A stretch of 64,000 nt of DNA from Dehalococcoidia bacterium (lineage in GTDB: Bacteria > Chloroflexota > Dehalococcoidia > UBA2979): positions 1,920,001 through 1,984,000 of the forward strand of contig OZ244720.1 of NCBI GenBank assembly GCA_965219085.1. Reading direction: 5' to 3'. This document shows positions 4,167-54,999 of this stretch, piece after piece. Under the pieces are notes generated by a model. The model was not told the origin of the DNA and did not search any database. It was given only the letters and a program-made list of their open reading frames with translations. The position numbers and the translations under genes are program-made. Within the stretch, counting starts at the first letter, position 1. Each line of letters opens with the position of its first letter.

Positions 4167-7100
4167 TCAGTTGGCTTCCGGAGGTCCCTCGCTCTTGGCG
4201 ACCAGTGGCGTGATGGGTGGAATGCCGTCCGGGGACAGTTCGCGGAAGGGCTGATTCGCGAACTCCGGTGCGCCGAGGATGTAGGAGACCCACTCCCCGT
4301 CCGCGAGGGCATAGACGGCCGTGACGCGTCGGCTCTCCGCGCAGGCGACCAGCTCCTCGACGCTGCCTCCCTCGTAGACGACGAGGCTGAAGCCCTCGAC
4401 GGCGGCGCCGCGCAGGCACTCGGGCCACGGCTGCGGCCCAGCGGCGTCAAGGTGATCCCCGAACGGGTCTGGCGAGGGAGGTCCGTTGCCGCCGGCGACC
4501 AGCGGCGTCATGACCGGGAGCCCGTCGGCGAACAGCTCAGTGAACTCGCGGTTGACGAAGTTGGGCGCACCGAGGATGTAGGAGACGTAGACGCCCTCGT
4601 GGAGAACGTAGAGGGCTACGACGTGCCGGCTCTGTGCGCAGGCGGCCAGCTCCTCGACGCTCCCGCCCTCGTAGACGACGAGGCTGAAGCCCTCGGCGAC
4701 TTCGCCGCGCAGGCAGTGGGTCCAGGGCTCGGGGGTCGACTGCTCAGCCTCGCCGAAGGCCACGCGGTAGGTCTTCGTGCGGCTGCCATCGGCCGAGGTC
4801 ACGGTGACGGTGATCTCGCCGAGGCCCGGGAGGGCAATCTGGTGGCCGTCCGCCTTCTCGCCGGCGTCGGGCGGGTCGATCACGACGCCGGCGCCGGACT
4901 GCACCGCCGCGGCCTCGACCGTCGTCTCCGCCACGCCCTCGGCGGCGACCCCCGTGTATTCAGTCTCTCGAGGTGAGAACTCCCCGATCTCGATGTCGCT
5001 CATCGTCAGCGTAGCGAGACGGGCGTCGATCGCGTCGGGCATGTTGTAGCTGTAGACCTTGTCGTCGCTGGCGTCGGCGACGTACATCACGTCGCCGTCG
5101 GACCAGAGGCCGCGCGGGCTGTTGTTGCTGGCCCGGCTCAATATGGTGTTGGGGAACTCCTCGTCGCGGACGCGCTCGAGCTCCTTGTCGCCCTCGTCCT
5201 CCTCGTCCGCGTCCGGCTCCCCGGACAGCACGGGCAGGCGGTAGGCGAAGAGCCGCTTGGCGCCGTGGTCGGAGACCCAGACCGTGACGCCGTCGGACCA
5301 GATGCCGCGCGGGTCGTTGTTGGCTGCGTCGAGGGCGCACTCGGCGAGCAGCTCGCCGCTCTCCAGGTCGTACACGAAGACGCTGTCCTTGCCGCCGTCG
5401 AGCACCCACATCGTCTCGCCGTCGGACCAGATGCCGCGGGCGGCACGGTTGCGCGCCGCGAGTTCGATGTCGCGCTCCGCGAGGCGCTCGCCGCTCTCGA
5501 GGTCGTGGGCGAAGAGCTTGTTCTGGCCGCTGTCGGAGACCCAGAGGATCTTGATCTTGCCATCCGACCAGACGCCGCGGGGCGCGCGGTTGCGCTCGTC
5601 GAGCTCGAACTCACGGTCCTCGACGCGCTCGCCGCTCTTGAGGTCGTAGGCGTAGATGGCGTCGTCGGCGCCCGAGCCGTTCTCGAGGAGCCAGAGGATG
5701 GAGCCATTGGACCAGGAGCCGGTGGGCGAGTCGTGGCTCGAGTCGAGCGACTCGATGTCGCGCTTGACGGTCCACTCGAAGTCGACCTCGCTCGGGGTCG
5801 GGCCTGTGGGGCCGCCACCCCCACCCGGACCGATCGGGCCGATGATGATCGGTGGCCTGCTCGGCCTGGTCGTCACCGTGATGGTCACGTCGATGCTCGC
5901 CGTGGCACCTTCGGTGTCGCGCGCCTCGACCGTGACGGCGTACTCGGACGTCGTAGCGGCGTCGAACGTGACCCCCGTGCCGACCGTGATCTGGCCGTCG
6001 GCGTCGATGACGAACGAAAACACGTCGGGGCCCGAGAGGCTGTACGCGAGCGTGTCGTTCTCGTCGACATCCGTCGCCGTCACGGGCGCGCCGACGTGAT
6101 CGCCGGCCTCCGCGCTCTCCGGCACGCTGCGGGTCGCGGCCTGCGACGCGAACGCGGGCGCGTCGTTCACTGGGTCCACCTCCACGGAGACGGTGGCGAT
6201 GTTCGAGAGTGACGGGCTGCCGGTGTCCCGGGCCCGGTAGGTGAACGTGTCCGCGCCGTGGTAGTCGGCGTTGGGCTCGTAGGTAATCGTGCGGCGATCG
6301 CCCGCACTCGCGGGTTCATTCACGCTCGCGCGTCCGTTGAGCGGCGGGGTGACCACCGTCAGCAGCAACTCGCTCGGGTCCTGCTCGGGGTCGCTGTCGT
6401 TGGCGAGGACGTCGATGGTGATCTCGGTGTCCTCGTCGAAACTGCCGGGGGCATCGGCGACGGCGTCCGGCGGCTCGTTCACGTCCGTGACCGTGATCGT
6501 GACCTCGACGGTGTCGAACGCATTGGAGCTGTCGCTGGCCTTGACGGTGACCGTGTGCGAGGGCGCCGTCTCGTGGTCGAGCGATGCTGCCTCCTTCACC
6601 CGGATCTGGCCACTGGCGCCGTCGATCGTGAACAGATCCGATGCGGGCTCGAGCTCGTACCCCACCGTGTTGCCCGGGTCGGGATCGCTGGCGGTGACGC
6701 GTTCCCCGACCGGGGCATCCGCCCGTGCGTTCTCGGCGATGCTGCGGGTCGGGTTCGCCTCCGTGAACGTCGGCGGGTTGTTGACGACGGGGGCTGCCAG
6801 GACCGAGTTGGTGGACACGGCGACGAGGCTCTTGTTCGGCCCGTGGCCGTCGGTGTATGCGGCGGTCGCGCGCAGGTAGTAGCCGATATCTCCCGCGACG
6901 GGCGTGTAGACGCTCGTCGTGGTGCTGTCGGCGGCCCCGGTGACGGCCGTCCAGGGGCCGCCGCGGCTTGTCGAGCGCTCCCACGTCCACGCCGTCGACC
7001 GCACGCCGTCGGGGTCGCCGAGGGTGGCGGTGTAGTCCGCCTCGGCCTGCGGCCGCGTTGCGGGCAGCGCGAGCATCCCGGGCTCTTCCCTGTTCGTGAC

Positions 7101-15431: not shown

Positions 15432-16789
15432 AGCTTTAGCCCTGATCCACCGAAGAAGAGCGGGCGAGGGGCTGCGGTTGGGTGCTCCGCTGTAGCTGGG
15501 ACAATGGGTTTTGAGAATTCACGTCACAGCCACAGGGAGCACCCATTCGATGCTACCAACGAGCGACCCCGACCGGATAGACATCGCCTTCGATGACGAC
15601 CGCCTCGTGGACCACGCGGGCCTGCTGCTCCCGGCCACGCTCGCCCAGCATCTCGGTCTGCAAGAGCTCGCCGACAGCTGCGTCGACCTCGGTGACGCGC
15701 CGGGCCGGGCGAACGCCGGCGACAAGCTGCTGACCCTCATCGCCTCGGCGCTCGCGGGCGGCGACTGCATCGACGACGCCGATGCGTTGCGCGCCGGCGG
15801 GACGGCGAGCGTGCTGGGTTGCACGGTCAAGGCGCCGTCCACCCTGGGCACGTTCCTGCGCAGCTTCCGCTGGGGCCACGTCCGCCAGCTCGACCGCGTC
15901 AGCCGCGAGTTGCTCGCTCGCAGCTGGGCGGCCGGGGCGGGACCCGGCGACGCGCCGTTCACGATCGACCTCGACTCGACGATCTGCGAGACCTACGGCT
16001 TGGCGAAGGAGGGCGCCCGGCACCACGGCTACACGGGCGCGCGCGGCTACCACCCGCTGCTCGCGGTGGCGGCCGGGACGGGTGACGTGCTGATGGCGCG
16101 GCTGCGCGAGGGCCGCGCCAACACTGCCCGCGGCGCCGCCCACTTCCTGCGTGAGACGGTGGCGCGGGTCCGCGCTGCCGGAGCGAGCGGGCAGCTCACG
16201 ATGCGCGCCGACAGCGGCTTCTACAACCACGCGGTCGTCGCCGCCTGCCGCGCGCTGGATGTCCGCTTCTCGGTCACGATTCGCCAGCAACCGAACGTAC
16301 GCACGCTGATCGAGGCGATCCCGGAAGCGGACTGGACGCCGATCCCGTACTGGCTGCCGGGCGGCGCCGCTGTCGCCGAGACGTCCTACACCCCGTTCCG
16401 GCACGCGAAGGACGCCAGCGCGGTCCGGCTCATCGTGCGGCGCGTGAGGCCGGCGCCCGGCTCACAGCTGGCGCTCTTCGCGACGTACAGCTACCACGCC
16501 TTCATCACCGACCGCGCGGGGGAGATGATGGAGCTCGAGACCGACCATCGCCGTCACGCCGAGATCGAGAACGCGATCCGCGACCTCAAGTACGGCGTCG
16601 GGCTCAACCATCTCCCCTCGGGCCGCTTCGCCGCGAACGCGGCATGGCTCGCGGTGCAGGTGATCGCGCACAACCTCGCCCGCTGGACGGCGCGGCTGGG
16701 GCTCGGCGAGGGAATCGTGACGACCAGGACGCTCAGGCGGCGCTACTTCGCTCTCGCCGGACGGCTCACCCACTTCTATGAGGGACGGT

Positions 16790-17050
16790 CTTTCCGCAAG
16801 GCCGACGTGGCGGCCTTCTCCGGGTATGGCGCTCCATTCAAGCCGCTCGTGATGTCCGGTCGCGGAGCCTGTGCCAAGCTTCTATCCGCACTCTCGGTGG
16901 GCTACAGCGAGCCCGGTGCATGAAGGCACATCCTGCTTCCAGGGGGCGCTGCTATCTCTGCCGCGTCCTCGATGGGACAAGTGGGTGCTCGCAGTCGCCC
17001 GTGCTCGGCATCACGTGCGTGGCTTCGTTCGCGCTCGGGTCTTCCTTCCT
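16790..17050 (-). ncRNA. Putative bridge/seek RNA of IS1111 copy A (boundaries approximate)
   Basis: Scaffold conserved with 52640-52900. Contains CACCCACT (complement of target flank), GGCAGAG (6/7 match to the other flank) and ATAGAAG (donor end). Confidence 0.75.
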
Positions 17051-17088
17051 GATCTCCGGTCCCCGCCGGCTGAGGCGGCGCCTCCCGG

Positions 17089-18177
17089 CTACGCGGCCTC
17101 GCGGGCCACGGCGTGACGCAGCGGCTCGTAGACCTCCCCGCTCTTCCACAGCGCGAGCAGCAGCACCGCCAACCGCCTCGCGACGGCCACGACCGCGCGC
17201 TTCTTCGCGTTGCCCGCCCCTGTTCCCGCGTAGCGCTCACCCCAGCGACGCAGGTCGCTATCGGGTCCGAAGGGACCGAGGATGTAGTGCGCGGCCTGCA
17301 CCAGCAGCCGCCGCAAGCCCGCGTCGCCGCTCTTGCCGATGCCGAGCTGCGGCGCGCGCTCCCCTGAGTCGCGCTGCCGCGGCACGAGCCCGAGGTAGGC
17401 CCCCACCTCCCGGTTCTGCGGGAAGCGCCCCGGGTTCTCGATCGTCAGCACGAACGTGAGCGCGGTGATCGGCCCCACGCCGGTGACCTGGCGCAGCGCC
17501 GCGGTCTCGGGGTGGGCCTCGCACAACGCCTCGACCTCCCGCCCGGCCGCCGCGGTGCGCACGGTCAGCTCGCCAATCGCCTCCACCAGCGGCAGCAGCG
17601 CCGGGCGCAGCCCGTCGGGGATGTGGTCCGCCGTCTTGCGGTGAAAGGCCGCGGCCGTGCACGACGGCAGCGCGGCGCCGCAGGCCTTGACGGCCCCGCG
17701 CACGTGGTTGATGAGCAGCGTCCTCGATCGCACCAGCGCGTCGCGGGCGCGCACCACGGCGAGGTCGTGCTGACTCTGCTCGCTCCTGTGGCGGATCGGG
17801 GCGAGCAACTCCGGGTCGAAGCGCCCCAGCCGCGCCAGCCACGCGGCGTCGAGCCGGTCGGTCTTGCGCTGGCTGCCGGCGATCAGCGCGACCTGGCGAG
17901 GGTTGGCGACGACCACCTCATGGCCGAGGTCCGCCACGACGCGGCTCAGCCACGGCGAGCGCGGCCCCGCCTCGAGCACGACCCGCGCCGGGGAGAGGCC
18001 GGTCAGCGCTGCGCCCAGCGCCGCAGCCGCGGTGCGGACGCGCCGCTCGCGTATCACCTCCCCGCCGGCGCCGAGGGCGTGGACGTGCGTGTAACGATCG
18101 CCCACGTCGAGGCCGACGGTGATGGCGGGCCCATCCTTGCCTTCAATGCTCCGCGTCGTTGCGATATGCTGCTGCAT
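17089..18177 (-). CDS. IS110-family DEDD recombinase/transposase, intact
   Basis: VGLDVG, VVLEAG, RKTDRLDA, GVGPITA, YLGLVPRQRDSG. RBS AGGAG upstream. Confidence 0.95.
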   Translation of the reverse strand: MQQHIATTRSIEGKDGPAITVGLDVGDRYTHVHALGAGGEVIRERRVRTAAAALGAALTGLSPARVVLEAGPRSPWLSRVVADLGHEVVVANPRQVALIAGSQRKTDRLDAAWLARLGRFDPELLAPIRHRSEQSQHDLAVVRARDALVRSRTLLINHVRGAVKACGAALPSCTAAAFHRKTADHIPDGLRPALLPLVEAIGELTVRTAAAGREVEALCEAHPETAALRQVTGVGPITALTFVLTIENPGRFPQNREVGAYLGLVPRQRDSGERAPQLGIGKSGDAGLRRLLVQAAHYILGPFGPDSDLRRWGERYAGTGAGNAKKRAVVAVARRLAVLLLALWKSGEVYEPLRHAVAREAA

Positions 18178-18606
18178 GGCCGGTCTCCTACCTCGTCAAG
18201 GCTCTTCCGAGCCGCTCTTGGCCCATCGAGGCCGCTGTTTCAGGGGGCGAGTATCCCCCTTGAGGAGGAGGCCGGCCCTCATGCCATCTCGGCCCCAGCG
18301 CTGGACCCTGCACCTCCCCAGGCGCTGGCCCTGGGCCGGGCAGCTGGCAGCCGCGCTCGCGCGACTACGGGCGTTACCGCTCCCGGCCTGACGCCCCCTC
18401 ACAGCGCCGGCCCGGGTCCGAGGCTCGCGCCAGCACGCCCGCGCACGCCTCGCGCTCCCGCGCGCTCGCGCCCTCAGCGCCCCCGAGCCGCGCTGAGCGA
18501 CGGCTCCTCGCTCCGGCACCGCCCGGCGAACGCCGGCGCACCCGCCGAACTCTCCGCCAGCCGGCATCCCGCCCCCTCAAGCTTCGATCGGTGTATCCGG
18601 GTTTAG

Positions 18607-50524: not shown

Positions 50525-51495
50525 GCAGGGTGGCGCTGTCCCGGGACTCCGCTCCGGACAGGCTCGCTCAGCACGATGACCGTCGTCGCGCTCCCGGTGC
50601 TCGCGCCCACTCGCGGTCGGTCGCCGCCAGGCGGCCGCGTGCCGAGCCGCCGAACCACGTCTCGGCGCTAGATTCCCAGTTCGACTAGACTGTAGACAGG
50701 CGGGTCCTGAAGCTGGTCAACATCGTTGACGAGCACACGCGCGAGGCGCTGGCGATGGTGGCCGTGCAGGCGCATCGGCGCCGACGCCACCGCCTCAACG
50801 CTCGAGCGGATCGTGGCCTGGCGCGGGACGGCGCCTAGCAGGGTGCTGAAAAAGGCGCGGCCATCTGGCAGGATGGGGCTGGCGGCGGGGGCATAGCCTG
50901 GGAGGCAGCCCCGTGCGAGGTGACGCCGAGCGCCAGACCAACATGTTGCTGGCGGTGACGCCGGACTCGTTTGTCCCGGCCGAGCACCCGATCCGCCGCA
51001 TCAAGCCGATCGTCGACGCAGCGCTGGCCCGGCTCTCGCCGCTGTTCGACACGATGTACGCCAGGGGCGGCCGGCCCTCGATCCCGCCCGAGCACCTGCT
51101 CAAGGCGAGCCTGCTGATCGCGCTCTACTCGATCCGCAGCGAGCGCCAGTTCTGCGAGCGGCTGCGCTACGACCTGCTGTTCAAGTGGTTCTTGGACCTC
51201 AACATCTCAGACGAACCGTTCGATGCCTCGAGCTTCTCGAAGAACCGCGAGCGCCTGCTCGCAGCGGACGCCGCGCATGCCTTCTTCGCCGAGGTGGTGG
51301 CCGAGGCAAAGCGCCGCCGGCTGCTCTCCGCCGAGCACTGCACGGTGGACGGGACGCTGCTCGAGGCCTGGGCCTCACTCAAGAGATGGCATGAGGGCCG
51401 GTCTCTTCCTCAAGGGGGATACTCGCCCCCGAAACAGCGGCCTCGATGGGCCAGAACGGCTCTTTGCGGAGCTTTGACGAGGTAGGAGACCGGCC

Positions 51496-52584
51496 GTGCA
51501 GCAGGATACCGCAACGACGTGGAGCATTGAGGGCAAGGAAGGGTCAGGGGTCACCATCGGCCTCGACGTGGGCGACCGCTACACCCACGTCCACGCCCTC
51601 GGCGCCGGCGGGGAGGTGGTACGTGAGAGGCGCGTCCGCACCACGACGGCAGCGCTGGGCATGGTGCTGACCGGCCTCCCCCCATCGCGGGTCGTGATCG
51701 AGGCGGGGCCGCGCTCGCCGTGGCTGAGCCGCCTCATGGCGGACCTCGGCCACGAGGTGGTCGTCGCCAACCCGCGCCAGGTCGCGCTGATCGCCCGCAG
51801 CCAGCGCAAGACCGACCGGCTCGACGCCGAGTGGCTGGCGCGGCTGGGGCGCTTCGACCCCCAGTTGCTCGCCCCGATCCGCCACCGCAGCGAGGCGAGC
51901 CAGCACGACCTCGCCGTGGTGCGCGCCCGCGACGCGCTGGTGCGCTCGCGGACGCTGCTCATCAACCACGTGCGCGGGGCCGTCAAGGCCTGCGGAGCCG
52001 CGTTGCCGTCGTGCACGGCCGAGGCGTTCCACCGCAAGACGGCGGACCACATCCCCGACGGGCTGCGCCCGGCGCTGCTGCCGCTGGTGGAGGCGATCGG
52101 CGAGCTGACCGCGCGCATCGCGGCGGCCGGCCGCGAGATCGAGGCGTTGTGCGAGGCTCACTCCGAGACCGCGGCGCTGCGCCAGGTCACGGGCGTCGGG
52201 CCGATCACCGCGCTCACGTTCGTGCTGACGATCGAGGATCCTGGGCGCTTCCCGAAGAACCGCGAGGTCGGCGCCTACCTCGGGCTCGTGCCGAGGCAGC
52301 GCGACTCGGGCGAGCGCACGCCGCAACTCGGCATCGGCAAGAGCGGCGATCCGCACCTGCGGCGGCTGCTGGTGCAGGCCGCGCACTACATCCTCGGCCC
52401 CTTCGGGCCCGACACCGACCTCCGCCGCTGGGGTGAGCGCTACACCGCTACGGGGGCCGGTAACGCGAAGAAGCGCGCCGTCGTGGGCGTCGCGAGGCGG
52501 CTGGCGGTGCTGCTGCTCGCGCTGTGGAAGACCGGCGAGGTCTACGAGCCGTTGCGCGACGCCGCGGCGCAGGAGGCCGCGTAG
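51496..52584 (+). CDS. IS110-family DEDD recombinase/transposase, intact, close paralogue of 17089-18177
   Basis: Same length (362 aa) and motifs as copy A. Confidence 0.95.
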   Translation: MQQDTATTWSIEGKEGSGVTIGLDVGDRYTHVHALGAGGEVVRERRVRTTTAALGMVLTGLPPSRVVIEAGPRSPWLSRLMADLGHEVVVANPRQVALIARSQRKTDRLDAEWLARLGRFDPQLLAPIRHRSEASQHDLAVVRARDALVRSRTLLINHVRGAVKACGAALPSCTAEAFHRKTADHIPDGLRPALLPLVEAIGELTARIAAAGREIEALCEAHSETAALRQVTGVGPITALTFVLTIEDPGRFPKNREVGAYLGLVPRQRDSGERTPQLGIGKSGDPHLRRLLVQAAHYILGPFGPDTDLRRWGERYTATGAGNAKKRAVVGVARRLAVLLLALWKTGEVYEPLRDAAAQEAA

Positions 52585-52639
52585 CAAGGCGCGGCGCCGA
52601 AGCAACCGACCAGGAGAGCGAGACTGAGACGGACCTGGG

Positions 52640-52900
52640 AGGAGGCCCAGCAAACCAACCACTGCACGTGATGCCGGGCAACGGGCGACTGCGAGGCGGT
52701 AGCGGTCCAACAAGGACGTTCAAGAGTTGGCAGCGCCCCCTGGAAGCAGGATGTGCCTTCATGCACCGGGCCCGATACGTGGCCCATCAAAGAGTGCGGA
52801 TAGAAGCTCGGCACAGGCTCCGTCAGGGGACATCACGAGCGGATCGGCCCCGATGTCGAGGAGCGCCACGCCCCGAGGAGGAAGCCGCCACGTCGGCCTT
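52640..52900 (+). ncRNA. Putative bridge/seek RNA of IS1111 copy B (boundaries approximate)
   Basis: GGCGGTAGC (52695-52703) and TCAAGAG (52720-52726) match this copy's target flanks. ATAGAAG (52800-52806) matches the donor end. Confidence 0.78.
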
Positions 52901-52908
52901 GCAGAAAG

Positions 52909-53819
52909 GTCGGGTAAGGGGCTGGCGCGGTACGAGCCGTAGGCAGTGGCGCTTATCCCGCCGGTTTCCCGCCGGTGCTCACTTCCACGTGCCGTAGCCA
53001 ACGCCCGTTTCCAGCCCCTCCCCTTCGAACCGTGCATGCGGTTCTCCCGCACACGGCTCACCGACGTCCTTCACCGGATGGCATTCGGCCCCGCCCGCCA
53101 CGCACGCTCCACAACGTCCCTGCGGTGGACTTTGTCGTAGAGCGCGTGAAAACGTCGCTCGGCTCGGCCTTGGCCGCCCGGTAGAGCGTGTGCTGTAGTT
53201 CTCGGACCTTTTGCTCGGCGGTTCTAGCCACGACGGGCACTCGCCAATCCTTCCCCAAGCTACACGCGCAGACGAAGTAGCGGCCCTTCCCTCACCGGCG
53301 GTTCTGTTGTCCGCTCGGCTCAATCGGTACTATGGCCGCCTCCGACTCCCTCCCGGCCGGCTACCCACTTCCCGGTTCGTCACCGGTTATAGGGCACCTC
53401 GCTCCGGCACCAATCCGCAGGCGCCGGACCGGGGAGGGCCTCCCCAGTTCCCGCCGTCACCTTCCACACGTTCCGCGCCCTCTACGCCGGGAGGTTCTTC
53501 GGGGTTGCGCCTCCAGGCTCTTCACCCCTTCCATGGCCTTCGCCCTGACGGCCGGGGCTCGGCTCCTCCTTGTTCCCACCATGCGGTGGGTATGTTCACG
53601 ACGCGGCAGACTTCGCTTCATGCTGCGGACCGCGTGGTCGCTCCCCCTCAAGGGCTTTCGACATCGGGCTCCGGCCCGGCCCGTTTCCAGACCCGACCGC
53701 CGATCTGCTACCGGGCCCCCTGGCAGTTACCCGGACCGGACTTTCACCGGTAGGCGACGACGAGCATGTCTCCGGACTGATCAGATCATTCTGCACCGTC
53801 CTTCGACTTCAGGGCGCAC
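52909..53819 (-). ncRNA. Group II intron (911 nt) with almost completely deleted RT/maturase ORF
   Basis: 5' GTGCG; domain V GAGCCGTGTGCGGGAGAACCGCATGCACGGTTC; 3' CTTACCCGAC. ORF stub KVRELQHTLYRAAKA. Boundaries confirmed by comparison with intron-less copy A (GAAAG|ACCGTCCC). Confidence 0.92.
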
Positions 53820-54999
53820 ACCGTCCCTCATAGAAGCTACCGCCCGCGCGACGAGCAGGAGCCACCCCCGGGCGGACGCAACCCGGATGTCGACTTCCGC
53901 GGGCGGCGGCGCAGCCGCGATACGCATAGCTCCGGCACCGACCCGCAGGCGCGGCTGTACACAAAGGGAGCGGGGCAGACGGCGAAACTCAGCTACATGG
54001 GCCATCTGCTGACCGAGAACCGTCACGGTCTGGTGCTGGACGTGGAGTTGACCGAGGCGAACGGGTACGCCGAGCGCGAGGCGGCGGTCACGATGCTGGA
54101 GCGCAGCGTGAGCGGCTGCGGGACGCTGGGCGCCGACCGCGGCTACGACACGCGCGACTTCGTGGCGGAACTGCGCGCGCGCGGCGTGACGCCGCACGTG
54201 GCGCAAAACGACCGCGGCCGCCGCAGCGCCGTGGACGGGCGCACCACGCGGCATCGCGGCTACAGGCAGAGTCAGAAGCGACGCAAGATCGTGGAGCAGG
54301 TCTTCGGCTGGATGAAGACCGTGGGCGGCGGGCGCAAGCTGCGTTTCGTGGGCCGCGAGCGCAACCGCGGCTGGCTGGAGCTCACCGCCGCCGCCTACAA
54401 CCTCGTGCGCATGGCCAGGCTCGAACTCGCCCCTGCGTAGGCGCAGTGCGCCCTCCGGCCGGTCCGGGAGCCCTCAGAGGCCCCCGGGGGCAGGTCAGGA
54501 GGCCACCATCACGAACCCGGAGGCGGCCTCAAGCCGCCTCTCGCCACTCCGAGACCCCGGAAGGGCGCTTCTTCAGCACCCTGCTAGGTACATCCGTTGC
54601 GACAACGGGCCAGAGCTCGCGGCGAACCCGCTACGCGACCTGGTGCCGGTTCTCCAGCACTGGCAGCAACTACACCGAGCCCGGTGCGCCGTGGGAGAAC
54701 CCGTATGTCGAATCGTTCAACGGCCCGCTGCGCGACGAGTTCCTGGCTGTCAAGCACTTCGACAGCCTGCTCGATGCGCAGGTACTGATCGAGGGCTGGC
54801 GGATCGAGTACGGCACGAGTCGCCCGCATCGTAGCCTGGGCTGGCTCACCCCGGCGGCCTACGTCGAGCGCTGGGAGGCTCCGCAACATGCTCGACTCTC
54901 ATAAGTGGTGGTCTCGCGAGGAGGGTCCGGTCATCGGCATGCGAAGAGGTGGATCGGGGCCACAAGGAAGTCGTGTGGAACTCGCCGTCGGACCCGAAC

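Follow-up and report, generated by a model that had tools for sequence, protein, structure and literature searches.

The stretch of DNA analysed here (the window) comprises 64,000 nucleotides of contig OZ244720.1 of a Dehalococcoidia bacterium (assembly GCA_965219085.1, positions 1,920,001 to 1,984,000), and the element with which we are concerned, referred to as copy B, interrupts an IS5-like transposase gene at 51386-53836 of the window (Table 1). The 2451-bp insert is made up of a 1540-bp IS1111-type insertion sequence (IS) and a 911-nt group II intron nested in its right end; a first-pass annotation of the window had called the whole interval an IS1111 copy, which is right for the IS and passed over the intron. 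A related intron-free element, copy A, lies on the opposite strand.

The reading frame of the host gene resumes across the insertion of copy B (...ASLK, then SYRP...), and the insertion point is TCAAG-AG-CTACCGCC; this IS5-type target site is also written TCAAGAGCTACCGCC. The limits of the insert were set at 51386-53836 because unoccupied sites carry a single AG. The genome, searched as a single 3.3-Mb contig, contains eight such IS5-like sites (GCTCAAG-AG-CTACCGCC), six IS1380-like sites and ten exact IS3-like sites of the type used by another copy, own9 (own and L numbers are handles for individual copies and loci). Occupied sites have AG at both junctions. Variants of the empty-site search string with AGAG or AAG had no match in the genome, and an AGAG target for copy A, suspected from the reading frame of the IS1380-like gene, was rejected because the empty sites have a single AG. 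In addition, a DNA contig from a public run (X5) passes directly from 51383 to 53835 and leaves out 2451 bases, two bases at the joint being ambiguous; only 21 letters lie on its shorter side.

Table 1. Features of copy B, its host gene and copy A in window coordinates, and the predicted guide classes of the genome
Feature	Position	Strand	Description
Whole inserted segment	51386-53836	+	2451 bp counting one AG; bounds from unoccupied sites and intron-less copies
IS5-like transposase gene (DUF772), 5' part	50913-51385	+	PF05598, E 2.7e-22; cut by the insertion of copy B
Left target half	51379-51385	+	TCAAGAG, including core AG (51384-51385); last 7 bases of the 5' host-gene part
Left end of copy B	51386-51404	+	5-nt extension ATGGC, then subterminal inverted repeat ATGAGGGCCGGTCT (51391-51404); identical left end in 10 of 11 copies, own7 being variant
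Recombinase gene	51496-52584	+	362 aa; starts with GTG where copy A has ATG; Pfam, NCBIfam and PDB homology
Predicted bridge/seek RNA	52664-52840	+	Range given by the outermost helix of the single-sequence fold
Target-binding loop module	52683-52738	+	Stem GGGCGaCUGC (52683-52692) with GCAGCGCCC (52730-52738); closing hairpin 52705-52717; guides on both strands of the internal loop
5' target guide	52695-52703	+	GGCGGUAGC; class-specific; complement of the top strand, core G plus right flank CTACCGCC
3' target guide	52720-52726	+	UCAAGAG; same sequence as left flank plus core AG; predicted partner, the bottom strand
Donor-binding loop module	52753-52806	+	5' donor guide GUGCCUUC (52753-52760); stem GCAC (52763-52766) with GUGC (52794-52797); hairpin 52768-52785
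3' donor guide	52798-52806	+	GGAUAGAAG; AUAGAAG within it is right-end sequence
Group II intron	52909-53819	-	911 nt, without an open reading frame (ORF); 5' GUGCG ... AC 3'; flanked in the right end by ...GCAGAAAG and ACCGTCCC...; antisense to the recombinase gene
Right end of copy B, terminal 17 nt	53820-53836	+	ACCGTCCCTCATAGAAG; subterminal repeat 53820-53831, then extension finishing in core AG; sequence reading
IS5-like transposase gene, 3' part	53837-54440	+	DDE_Tnp_1 (Pfam) at 53997-54437; first 8 bases CTACCGCC are the right target half
Copy A	16773-18287	-	1515 bp, intron-free, in an IS1380-like transposase gene (PF13701); recombinase gene 18177-17089
Copy A guides	16987-16979; 16963-16956	-	5' CACCCACUU; 3' CGGCAGAG; sequence comparison
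Class B, five copies			Guides GGCGGUAGC / UCAAGAG; IS5-like site
Class A: own5, own6 (window copy A), own8			Guides CACCCACUU / CGGCAGAG; target ..GGC(A/C)G-AG-TGGGTGAGCC, IS1380-like gene (PF13701)
own9			Guides ACAGGCUGCUU / CCGCAUAG; target CCGCAT-AG-CAGCCTGG, IS3-like rve gene
own10			Guides GCCGAGCUGCU / UCCACCAG; target CCACC-AG-CAGCTCG, fragment homologous to another IS110-family gene
own7 (L008)	340397-341913 (genome)		Class A guides; IS5-like variant site

Recombinase and element ends

The gene carried by copy B encodes an IS110-family recombinase whose product matches PF01548 (DEDD_Tnp_IS110) over residues 21-164 (E 2.8e-19) and PF02371 (Transposase_20) over residues 227-297 (E 4.6e-20), and which scores 240 bits against the NCBIfam equivalog NF033542, "IS110 family RNA-guided transposase" (cut-off 140). 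In its C-terminal domain the product shows homology (E about 1e-6) to two recombinases of known structure in the PDB, those of ISCro4 and IS621, and S271 lies opposite the SG of ISCro4 in a phmmer alignment. Residues D24, E69, D107, D110, S271 and G272 are invariant in five copies, the N-terminal ones being placed by motif only.

Assignment to the IS1111 group follows from three traits that divide this group from the IS110 group: the sequence GLVPRQRDSG at residues 263-272, which agrees with the IS1111 motif GL-P----S(t)G (PMC11187229), the subterminal repeats, and a long downstream non-coding region. The 14-bp inverted repeats, ATGAGGGCCGGTCT on the left and AGACCGTCCCTCAT on the right, match at 13 of 14 positions and lie 5 nt from each end of the intron-less copies (compared by eye); 12 of the 14 right-hand positions still adjoin the terminus in copy B, the intron having separated the others from it. 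The non-coding ends measure 110 bp on the left and, the intron set aside, approximately 340 bp on the right.

A predicted bridge RNA with target and donor loops

The region downstream of the recombinase gene is predicted to give rise to an RNA with a target-binding and a donor-binding module (Table 1). The sequence GGCGGTAGC (52695-52703) reads as the reverse complement of a segment spanning the right junction of copy B, GCTACCGCC (53836-53844), and TCAAGAG at 52720-52726 is the same as the left flank at 51379-51385. As a chance control, a random junction-anchored 9-mer and 7-mer were drawn together from the window; in 0.015% of 20000 trials, both members of the pair occurred in the non-coding region of 324 nt. 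A second 9-mer complement, between 52642-52650 and the left flank at 51367-51375, was rejected as a guide; the flank of the other class B copies differs there, and the match is regarded as a coincidence since this flank is peculiar to one IS5 copy.

Structural evidence comes from an alignment of the RNA regions of 22 elements, taken from this genome, from Dehalococcoidia metagenome-assembled genomes (MAGs) whose recombinases are 86-90% identical (one 75%), and from Acidobacteriota, Holophagales, Kofleriaceae and other MAGs at 44-69%. The two-module structure is conserved throughout, with 98.6% of the cells paired over 20 base pairs and changes on both sides at seven of them. Its covariation score of 0.224 compares with 0.064 in shuffled alignments, none of 500 of which reached the observed value, and controls in which the structure was slid along the alignment paired at 30-47%. 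Both modules contribute to this signal: a pair in the closing hairpin of the target loop changes from UA to GC or CG in 9 of the 22 sequences, and all five pairs of the donor-loop hairpin show changes on both sides. The AG that terminates the 3' target guide is invariant in all 22 RNAs. No Rfam family matches the guide RNA region; a permissive-threshold search of 52560-52920 returned a lone match, Twister-sister, on the opposite strand at chance level (E 7.7), which was discarded. Contigs from the RNA libraries X17 and X19 do not cover 52594-52835, although assembled contigs cannot reveal transcripts.

The donor guides also track the ends of the element. Where the right end is ..CATAGAAG (the lineage of this genome and ten Holophagales/Acidobacteriota copies), the 3' donor guide has AUAGAAG, and where it is ..CATGGAAG (nine Kofleriaceae copies) the guide has AUGGAAG, so that the A/G difference in the right end is tracked by the guide in 19 of the 19 distant copies listed. 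Compared by eye, the 5' donor guide is complementary to the core G and the start of the left end, UGCCUUC facing G-ATGGCA here, with mismatches, and CCCAUC facing G-ATGGG in the Holophagales set and in L092; position 5 of the left end shows a compensatory change with this guide, again with mismatches and by eye.

In most guide classes the 5' target guide ends in ..CUU, whose final U would find its partner in the right end, in the A before the core (..GAAG), and not in the base of the empty target. This terminal U resembles the handshake guides of IS621; class B is devoid of it.

Guides and targets across copies and relatives

The genome harbors 11 copies of the element, which fall in four guide classes and interrupt IS5-like, IS1380-like, IS3-like (rve) and IS110-like genes (Table 1). 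A plasmid collection returned only short matches, 75-78% identical, to IS110-family genes. Including related MAGs, we recognized 12 guide classes and 23 distinct guide/flank combinations. Each was scored over 17 positions, eight for the 3' guide and nine for the 5' guide; four registers were permitted, since that of the 5' guide varies among classes, and the same rule was applied to a cross-class control. The count of 23 omits own8, which has a deleted right end, seven loci invaded at the left end by another intron (L026, L028-L032, L034) and 13 loci without detected end motifs.

Scores of at least 14/17 were obtained for 14 of the 23 pairings of guides with their own flanks and for 2 of 253 cross-class pairings. 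Among more distant relatives (three sets, 50-55% protein identity), all 18 copies having both flanks reached this score; L069 is without a left flank and the scaffold of L093 was not found by pattern. The guides thus change in at least 12 classes while the recombinases remain 86-100% identical, and in one instance a single base is tracked: a guide in ..CCCACUU goes with the target AGTGGGTG here, and one in ..CCCGCUU with AGCGGGTG in L049.

The comparison of the two window copies, from which the first-pass annotation had derived the notion of a natural guide swap, is borne out at its core. The guide and flank strings of copy B are found where it had placed them, one as complement and the other as identity, with the complement guide 5' of the identity guide as it had proposed. 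Each of the two scaffold strings is present once in each copy, and these are its only occurrences in the window (copy B, 52683-52695 and 52730-52750 on the plus strand; copy A, 16988-17000 and 16932-16952 on the minus strand), two matches to the 21-mer being reached in none of 100 shuffles, and the donor-loop strings and element termini, said to be unchanged, are identical between the copies. In copy A the right flank AAGTGGGTG is matched at 9 of 9 positions, counting an A supplied by the right end. Its description of the recombinases as nearly the same is generous, as the two proteins, although both of 362 aa, are 89% identical. The AG core that it had put forward agrees with the single AG of unoccupied sites and with the invariant AG of the 3' guide, and the assignment of the variable segments as target guides is sustained by the own versus cross-class scores and by the distant copies. 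The persistence of the matches in a larger set of copies, which it had proposed as a check, was found in these same two comparisons and fails for own7 and for the pair L043/L088, whose flanks fit the guides of another class.

Copy own7 is a mosaic, with a first ~200 bp that resembles own9 (97% and 92% in the first two windows of comparison) and a remainder 100% identical to class A. L043 and L088, which occupy the target of L092, a 75%-identical element in the same MAG, are 100% identical to L040/L042 along the element and are therefore not mosaics. The right end of own1 (L002) is suggestive of an adjacent deletion or of a half-matched event; an orphan right half of the IS5 gene was sought in the genome and none was found. 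Guide/flank matches are weak or absent at L020, L021-L024, L046, L033 and L048.

A nested group II intron and other passengers

On the minus strand, the intron matches the Rfam models RF02003 (53618-53753, 95.1 bits, cut-off 49) and RF00029 (52909-53061, 44.8 bits, cut-off 40). Situated beyond the RNA gene and antisense to it, the intron is separated from the terminus by 17 nt; recombinase gene, RNA gene and end sequences all remain intact. The class B copies own0, own3 and own4 are devoid of it, the difference being exactly 911 nt, and the same intron occupies the same site in the relative L025. The two intron-bearing elements of this genome, own1 and copy B, are identical over 2451 bp, reside in different IS5 copies and share two single-nucleotide polymorphisms not found in the three intron-less class B copies. 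This pattern is most simply read as a single invasion by the intron, after which the composite element moved; homing on separate occasions, or gene conversion, could also account for the pair.

No ORF for an intron-encoded reverse transcriptase/maturase was seen in the 911 nt, and the sole RVT_1/GIIM locus of the genome lies elsewhere (3113454-3114434, with one TGA within the GIIM match); we therefore regard the intron as an ORF-less derivative and not as a complete mobile intron, on which the RVT_1/GIIM locus might act in trans. A third copy at about 3165840 of the genome, 86% identical over 476 nt and likewise without an intron protein, is interrupted at about 3166316 by a Mutator-family (IS256-like) transposase gene. 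X17 contigs cover the intron (52907-53819) with different flanking letters and thus represent related introns elsewhere rather than transcription at this locus.

Introns are also found at the opposite end of related elements. L026, L028-L032 and L034 have a common foreign sequence just upstream of the left-end motif, identified in L034 as a minus-strand group II intron belonging to a different class (RF02005). With introns at the right end here and at the left end in relatives, both ends of this IS lineage appear to be intron homing sites. In L034 the 3' donor guide is interrupted, exactly at GGATAG^AAG, by another IS110-family element (4799-6081), which is ~1.28 kb long and contains a 362-aa minus-strand ORF; the same is true of L025, L049 and probably L038, and the donor loop is thereby split.

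Tandem right-end segments occur in three copies of the genome: twice in own5, twice in own10 and five times in own9 (L010), where they include a second full RNA gene. The loci are 2849990-2850740 (own9), 1261320-1261394 and 893306-893397 in genome coordinates. At each tandem junction the terminal ..AAG is joined to an internal site after AG, the internal site in own10 being left-end-like.

The window is rich in further transposase genes, among them an IS3-like C-terminus beside the IS5-like gene (54446-54904) and the IS1380-like gene that hosts copy A (15511-16772).

Proposed mechanism and alternative explanations

Family membership of the recombinase, covariation in the RNA, guide/flank and guide/end matches, single-AG empty sites and class-specific targets, all of them drawn from sequence, converge on one interpretation. 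With a probability of about 90%, we consider 51386-53836 to be an IS110-family, IS1111-group IS in which the gene for a DEDD/serine recombinase is followed by that for a bridge (seek) RNA of ~175 nt, which would direct insertion at an AG core. Of the two target-loop segments, the 5' one would pair to the right of the crossover with the top strand of the target and the 3' one to its left with the bottom strand, both extending into the shared AG. Two equivalent segments of the donor loop would read the left and right ends of the element itself. The recombinase would then exchange strands at the AG core, which would explain insertion without duplication beyond the shared AG; the chemistry of this step is carried over by analogy from IS621 and ISEc11. 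The guides of copy B would thereby specify a conserved site in the IS5-like transposase gene, and those of copy A a site in the IS1380-like gene.

A number of observations weigh against this interpretation. The fold energy of the single RNA sequence is no better than that of shuffled sequences (z -0.95; 36 of 200 fold as well), for which reason covariation was relied on instead, and a simple scan of 51300-53900 for sigma-70-like promoters found none; production of the RNA and its binding by the recombinase are matters that we infer. The 5' donor guide agrees with the left end of copy B at only 6 of 8 positions (by eye), the left flank of copy A, GGGCCGAG, is matched at only 6 of 8, and the register of the 5' target guide shifts by up to 3 nt among classes. 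Nine of the 23 guide/flank combinations score below 14/17. Among the poorly fitting copies, own7 scores 8/17 with its own guides and 15/17 with those of class B; L043/L088 score 7-8/17 with their own and 15/17 with those of L092; and the right end of own1 (genome 1859966 onward) adjoins non-IS5 DNA (TGACCGCT...) with a 6/9 match. Finally, the relatives are MAGs, in which repeats may be misassembled.

Internal strings that match the flanks might conceivably be target DNA captured by recombination or tandem insertion, the protein alone selecting the target. The tandem right-end repeats of own5, own9 and own10 show that target-adjacent DNA can be duplicated inside such loci, but captured DNA would hardly come to lie at fixed positions on the two strands of an internal loop whose helices covary across phyla, one string as complement and the other as identity, nor change with the target in at least 12 classes on recombinases that are 86-100% identical; as the same design has been demonstrated experimentally for ISEc11 (PMC11187229), we hold this explanation to be very improbable. 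It is less far-fetched, if still unlikely, that copy B is a dead or non-autonomous relic in which the match records a past insertion, the intron-bearing form being no longer self-mobile. The intron cuts off from the right end the 2 nt at the inner edge of the subterminal repeat and shifts the upstream parts 911 bp from the terminus, eight matching IS5-like sites are still unoccupied, and expression of copy B is itself presumed. The recombinase frame is, however, open and identical in own0, own1 and own2, neither the RNA gene nor the final 17 nt of the right end is damaged, and two identical 2451-bp intron-bearing copies in different IS5 copies fit movement after the arrival of the intron.

A guide-directed element being the preferred reading, it may further be asked how own7, L043 and L088 came to occupy sites that fit the guides of a sibling. 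The flanks of own7 fit class B guides much better than its own. Either guiding in trans or gene conversion of a resident element can account for this mosaic copy. L043 and L088 are not mosaics, and their placement in the target of L092 favours guiding in trans, as does the fact that the right-end donor guide is common to these elements. Action in trans being a conjecture for these organisms, we put placement of the three copies by the guide RNA of a sibling, rather than by later recombination between copies, at a little short of even odds.

More tentatively still, we picture this young IS1111-type lineage (recombinases 86-100% identical) as a hyperparasite family in which only the guide loops diversify, tracking targets base by base, to colonise conserved coding sites of IS5, IS1380, IS3 and IS110 elements. 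Its members may share guide RNAs in trans since their ends and proteins are interchangeable, and may be hosts in their turn to group II introns at either end and, among relatives, to an IS110-family parasite of the donor guide.

The value of these observations lies in the data set: at least 12 natural guide classes, combined with a near-constant protein and scaffold, are available from one genome and a few close relatives, with both occupied and empty targets. They delimit the programmable positions of an IS1111-type bridge RNA to roughly 9 nt and 7-8 nt around the AG core, and they provide natural cases in which cargo is tolerated (an intron between RNA gene and end), right-end units are repeated in tandem, or an insertion agrees with the guides of a sibling. 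Such cases are relevant to off-target or half-match events, to the use of RNAs in trans and to cargo limits of bridge recombinases, as well as to the origin of new specificities in nature. For annotation, they explain the interruption of several IS families at identical codons in this genome.

Comparison with known systems

Target sites known for the IS1111 group are REP (repetitive extragenic palindromic) sequences, attC sites or transposon ends; unlike these, the sites targeted here are coding sequences of other IS transposases. Like ISEc11, ISPa11, ISKpn4 and ISXne4 (Siddiquee et al. 2024, PMC11187229), the elements described here combine a DEDD recombinase bearing GL-P----SG with subterminal repeats and a long downstream non-coding region. 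In the IS1111 seekRNA of that study, the top-strand match lies 5' of the bottom-strand match and the two overlap at the insertion point; the same guide order and overlap are seen here, as is natural re-direction between close relatives, which was reported for ISEc11 versus ISXne4 together with experimental reprogramming (PMC11187229). In contrast to those elements, whose family has recombinases of 330-350 aa, the recombinase here is of 362 aa, and four guide classes coexist in one genome. Mechanism, guide order and natural retargeting had thus already been published (Siddiquee 2024; Durrant 2024), so that the swap seen by the first-pass annotation is not new in kind. Its suggestion of a compact tool does not stand either: 362 aa exceeds the 328-residue chain of the IS621 recombinase as well as the 201-aa recombinase of an active element described in a preprint. 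Close relatives may already be present in Supplementary Table 5 of PMC11208160 or in the supplementary figures of PMC11187229.

With IS621 and other IS110-group bridge recombinases (Durrant 2024, PMC11208160; Hiraizumi 2024, PMC11208158), copy B shares a target and a donor loop, each predicted to read both strands around a core dinucleotide, along with the C-terminal homology noted above and a putative composite active site of RuvC-like DEDD residues and a serine; the catalytic residues of IS621 are D11, E60, D102, D105 and S241. IS621 differs in having its RNA in the left end, where that of copy B lies in the right end, a position at which a bridge RNA was predicted for 93% of IS1111 elements (PMC11208160). 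It further differs in its CT core, to be compared with AG on the recombinase strand here, and in the order of its guides, which is reversed relative to copy B (PMC11187229). The subterminal repeats of copy B are also long compared with IS621, those of the IS1111 group being 7-17 bp (PMC11208160).

Two preprints report cargo, tandem non-coding units and half-matches at IS110 loci (bioRxiv 10.64898/2026.08.14.744561; 10.64898/2026.08.31.748434). As at these expanded loci, copy B has cargo, here an intron, between the recombinase/RNA module and the end, and its relatives own5, own9 and own10 have tandem right-end units with core junctions, partial guide fit being seen in own1. Unlike the present elements, which belong to the IS1111 group, those of the preprints are of the IS110 group, and the main text of 10.64898/2026.08.14.744561 contains neither "IS1111" nor "group II intron". 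The nested element itself is similar to bacterial ORF-less group II introns in its Rfam matches to domains D1-D4 and D5-D6, its 5' GUGCG and its precise insertion in two IS copies and in L025, and is distinguished from complete group II introns by being without an intron-encoded protein.

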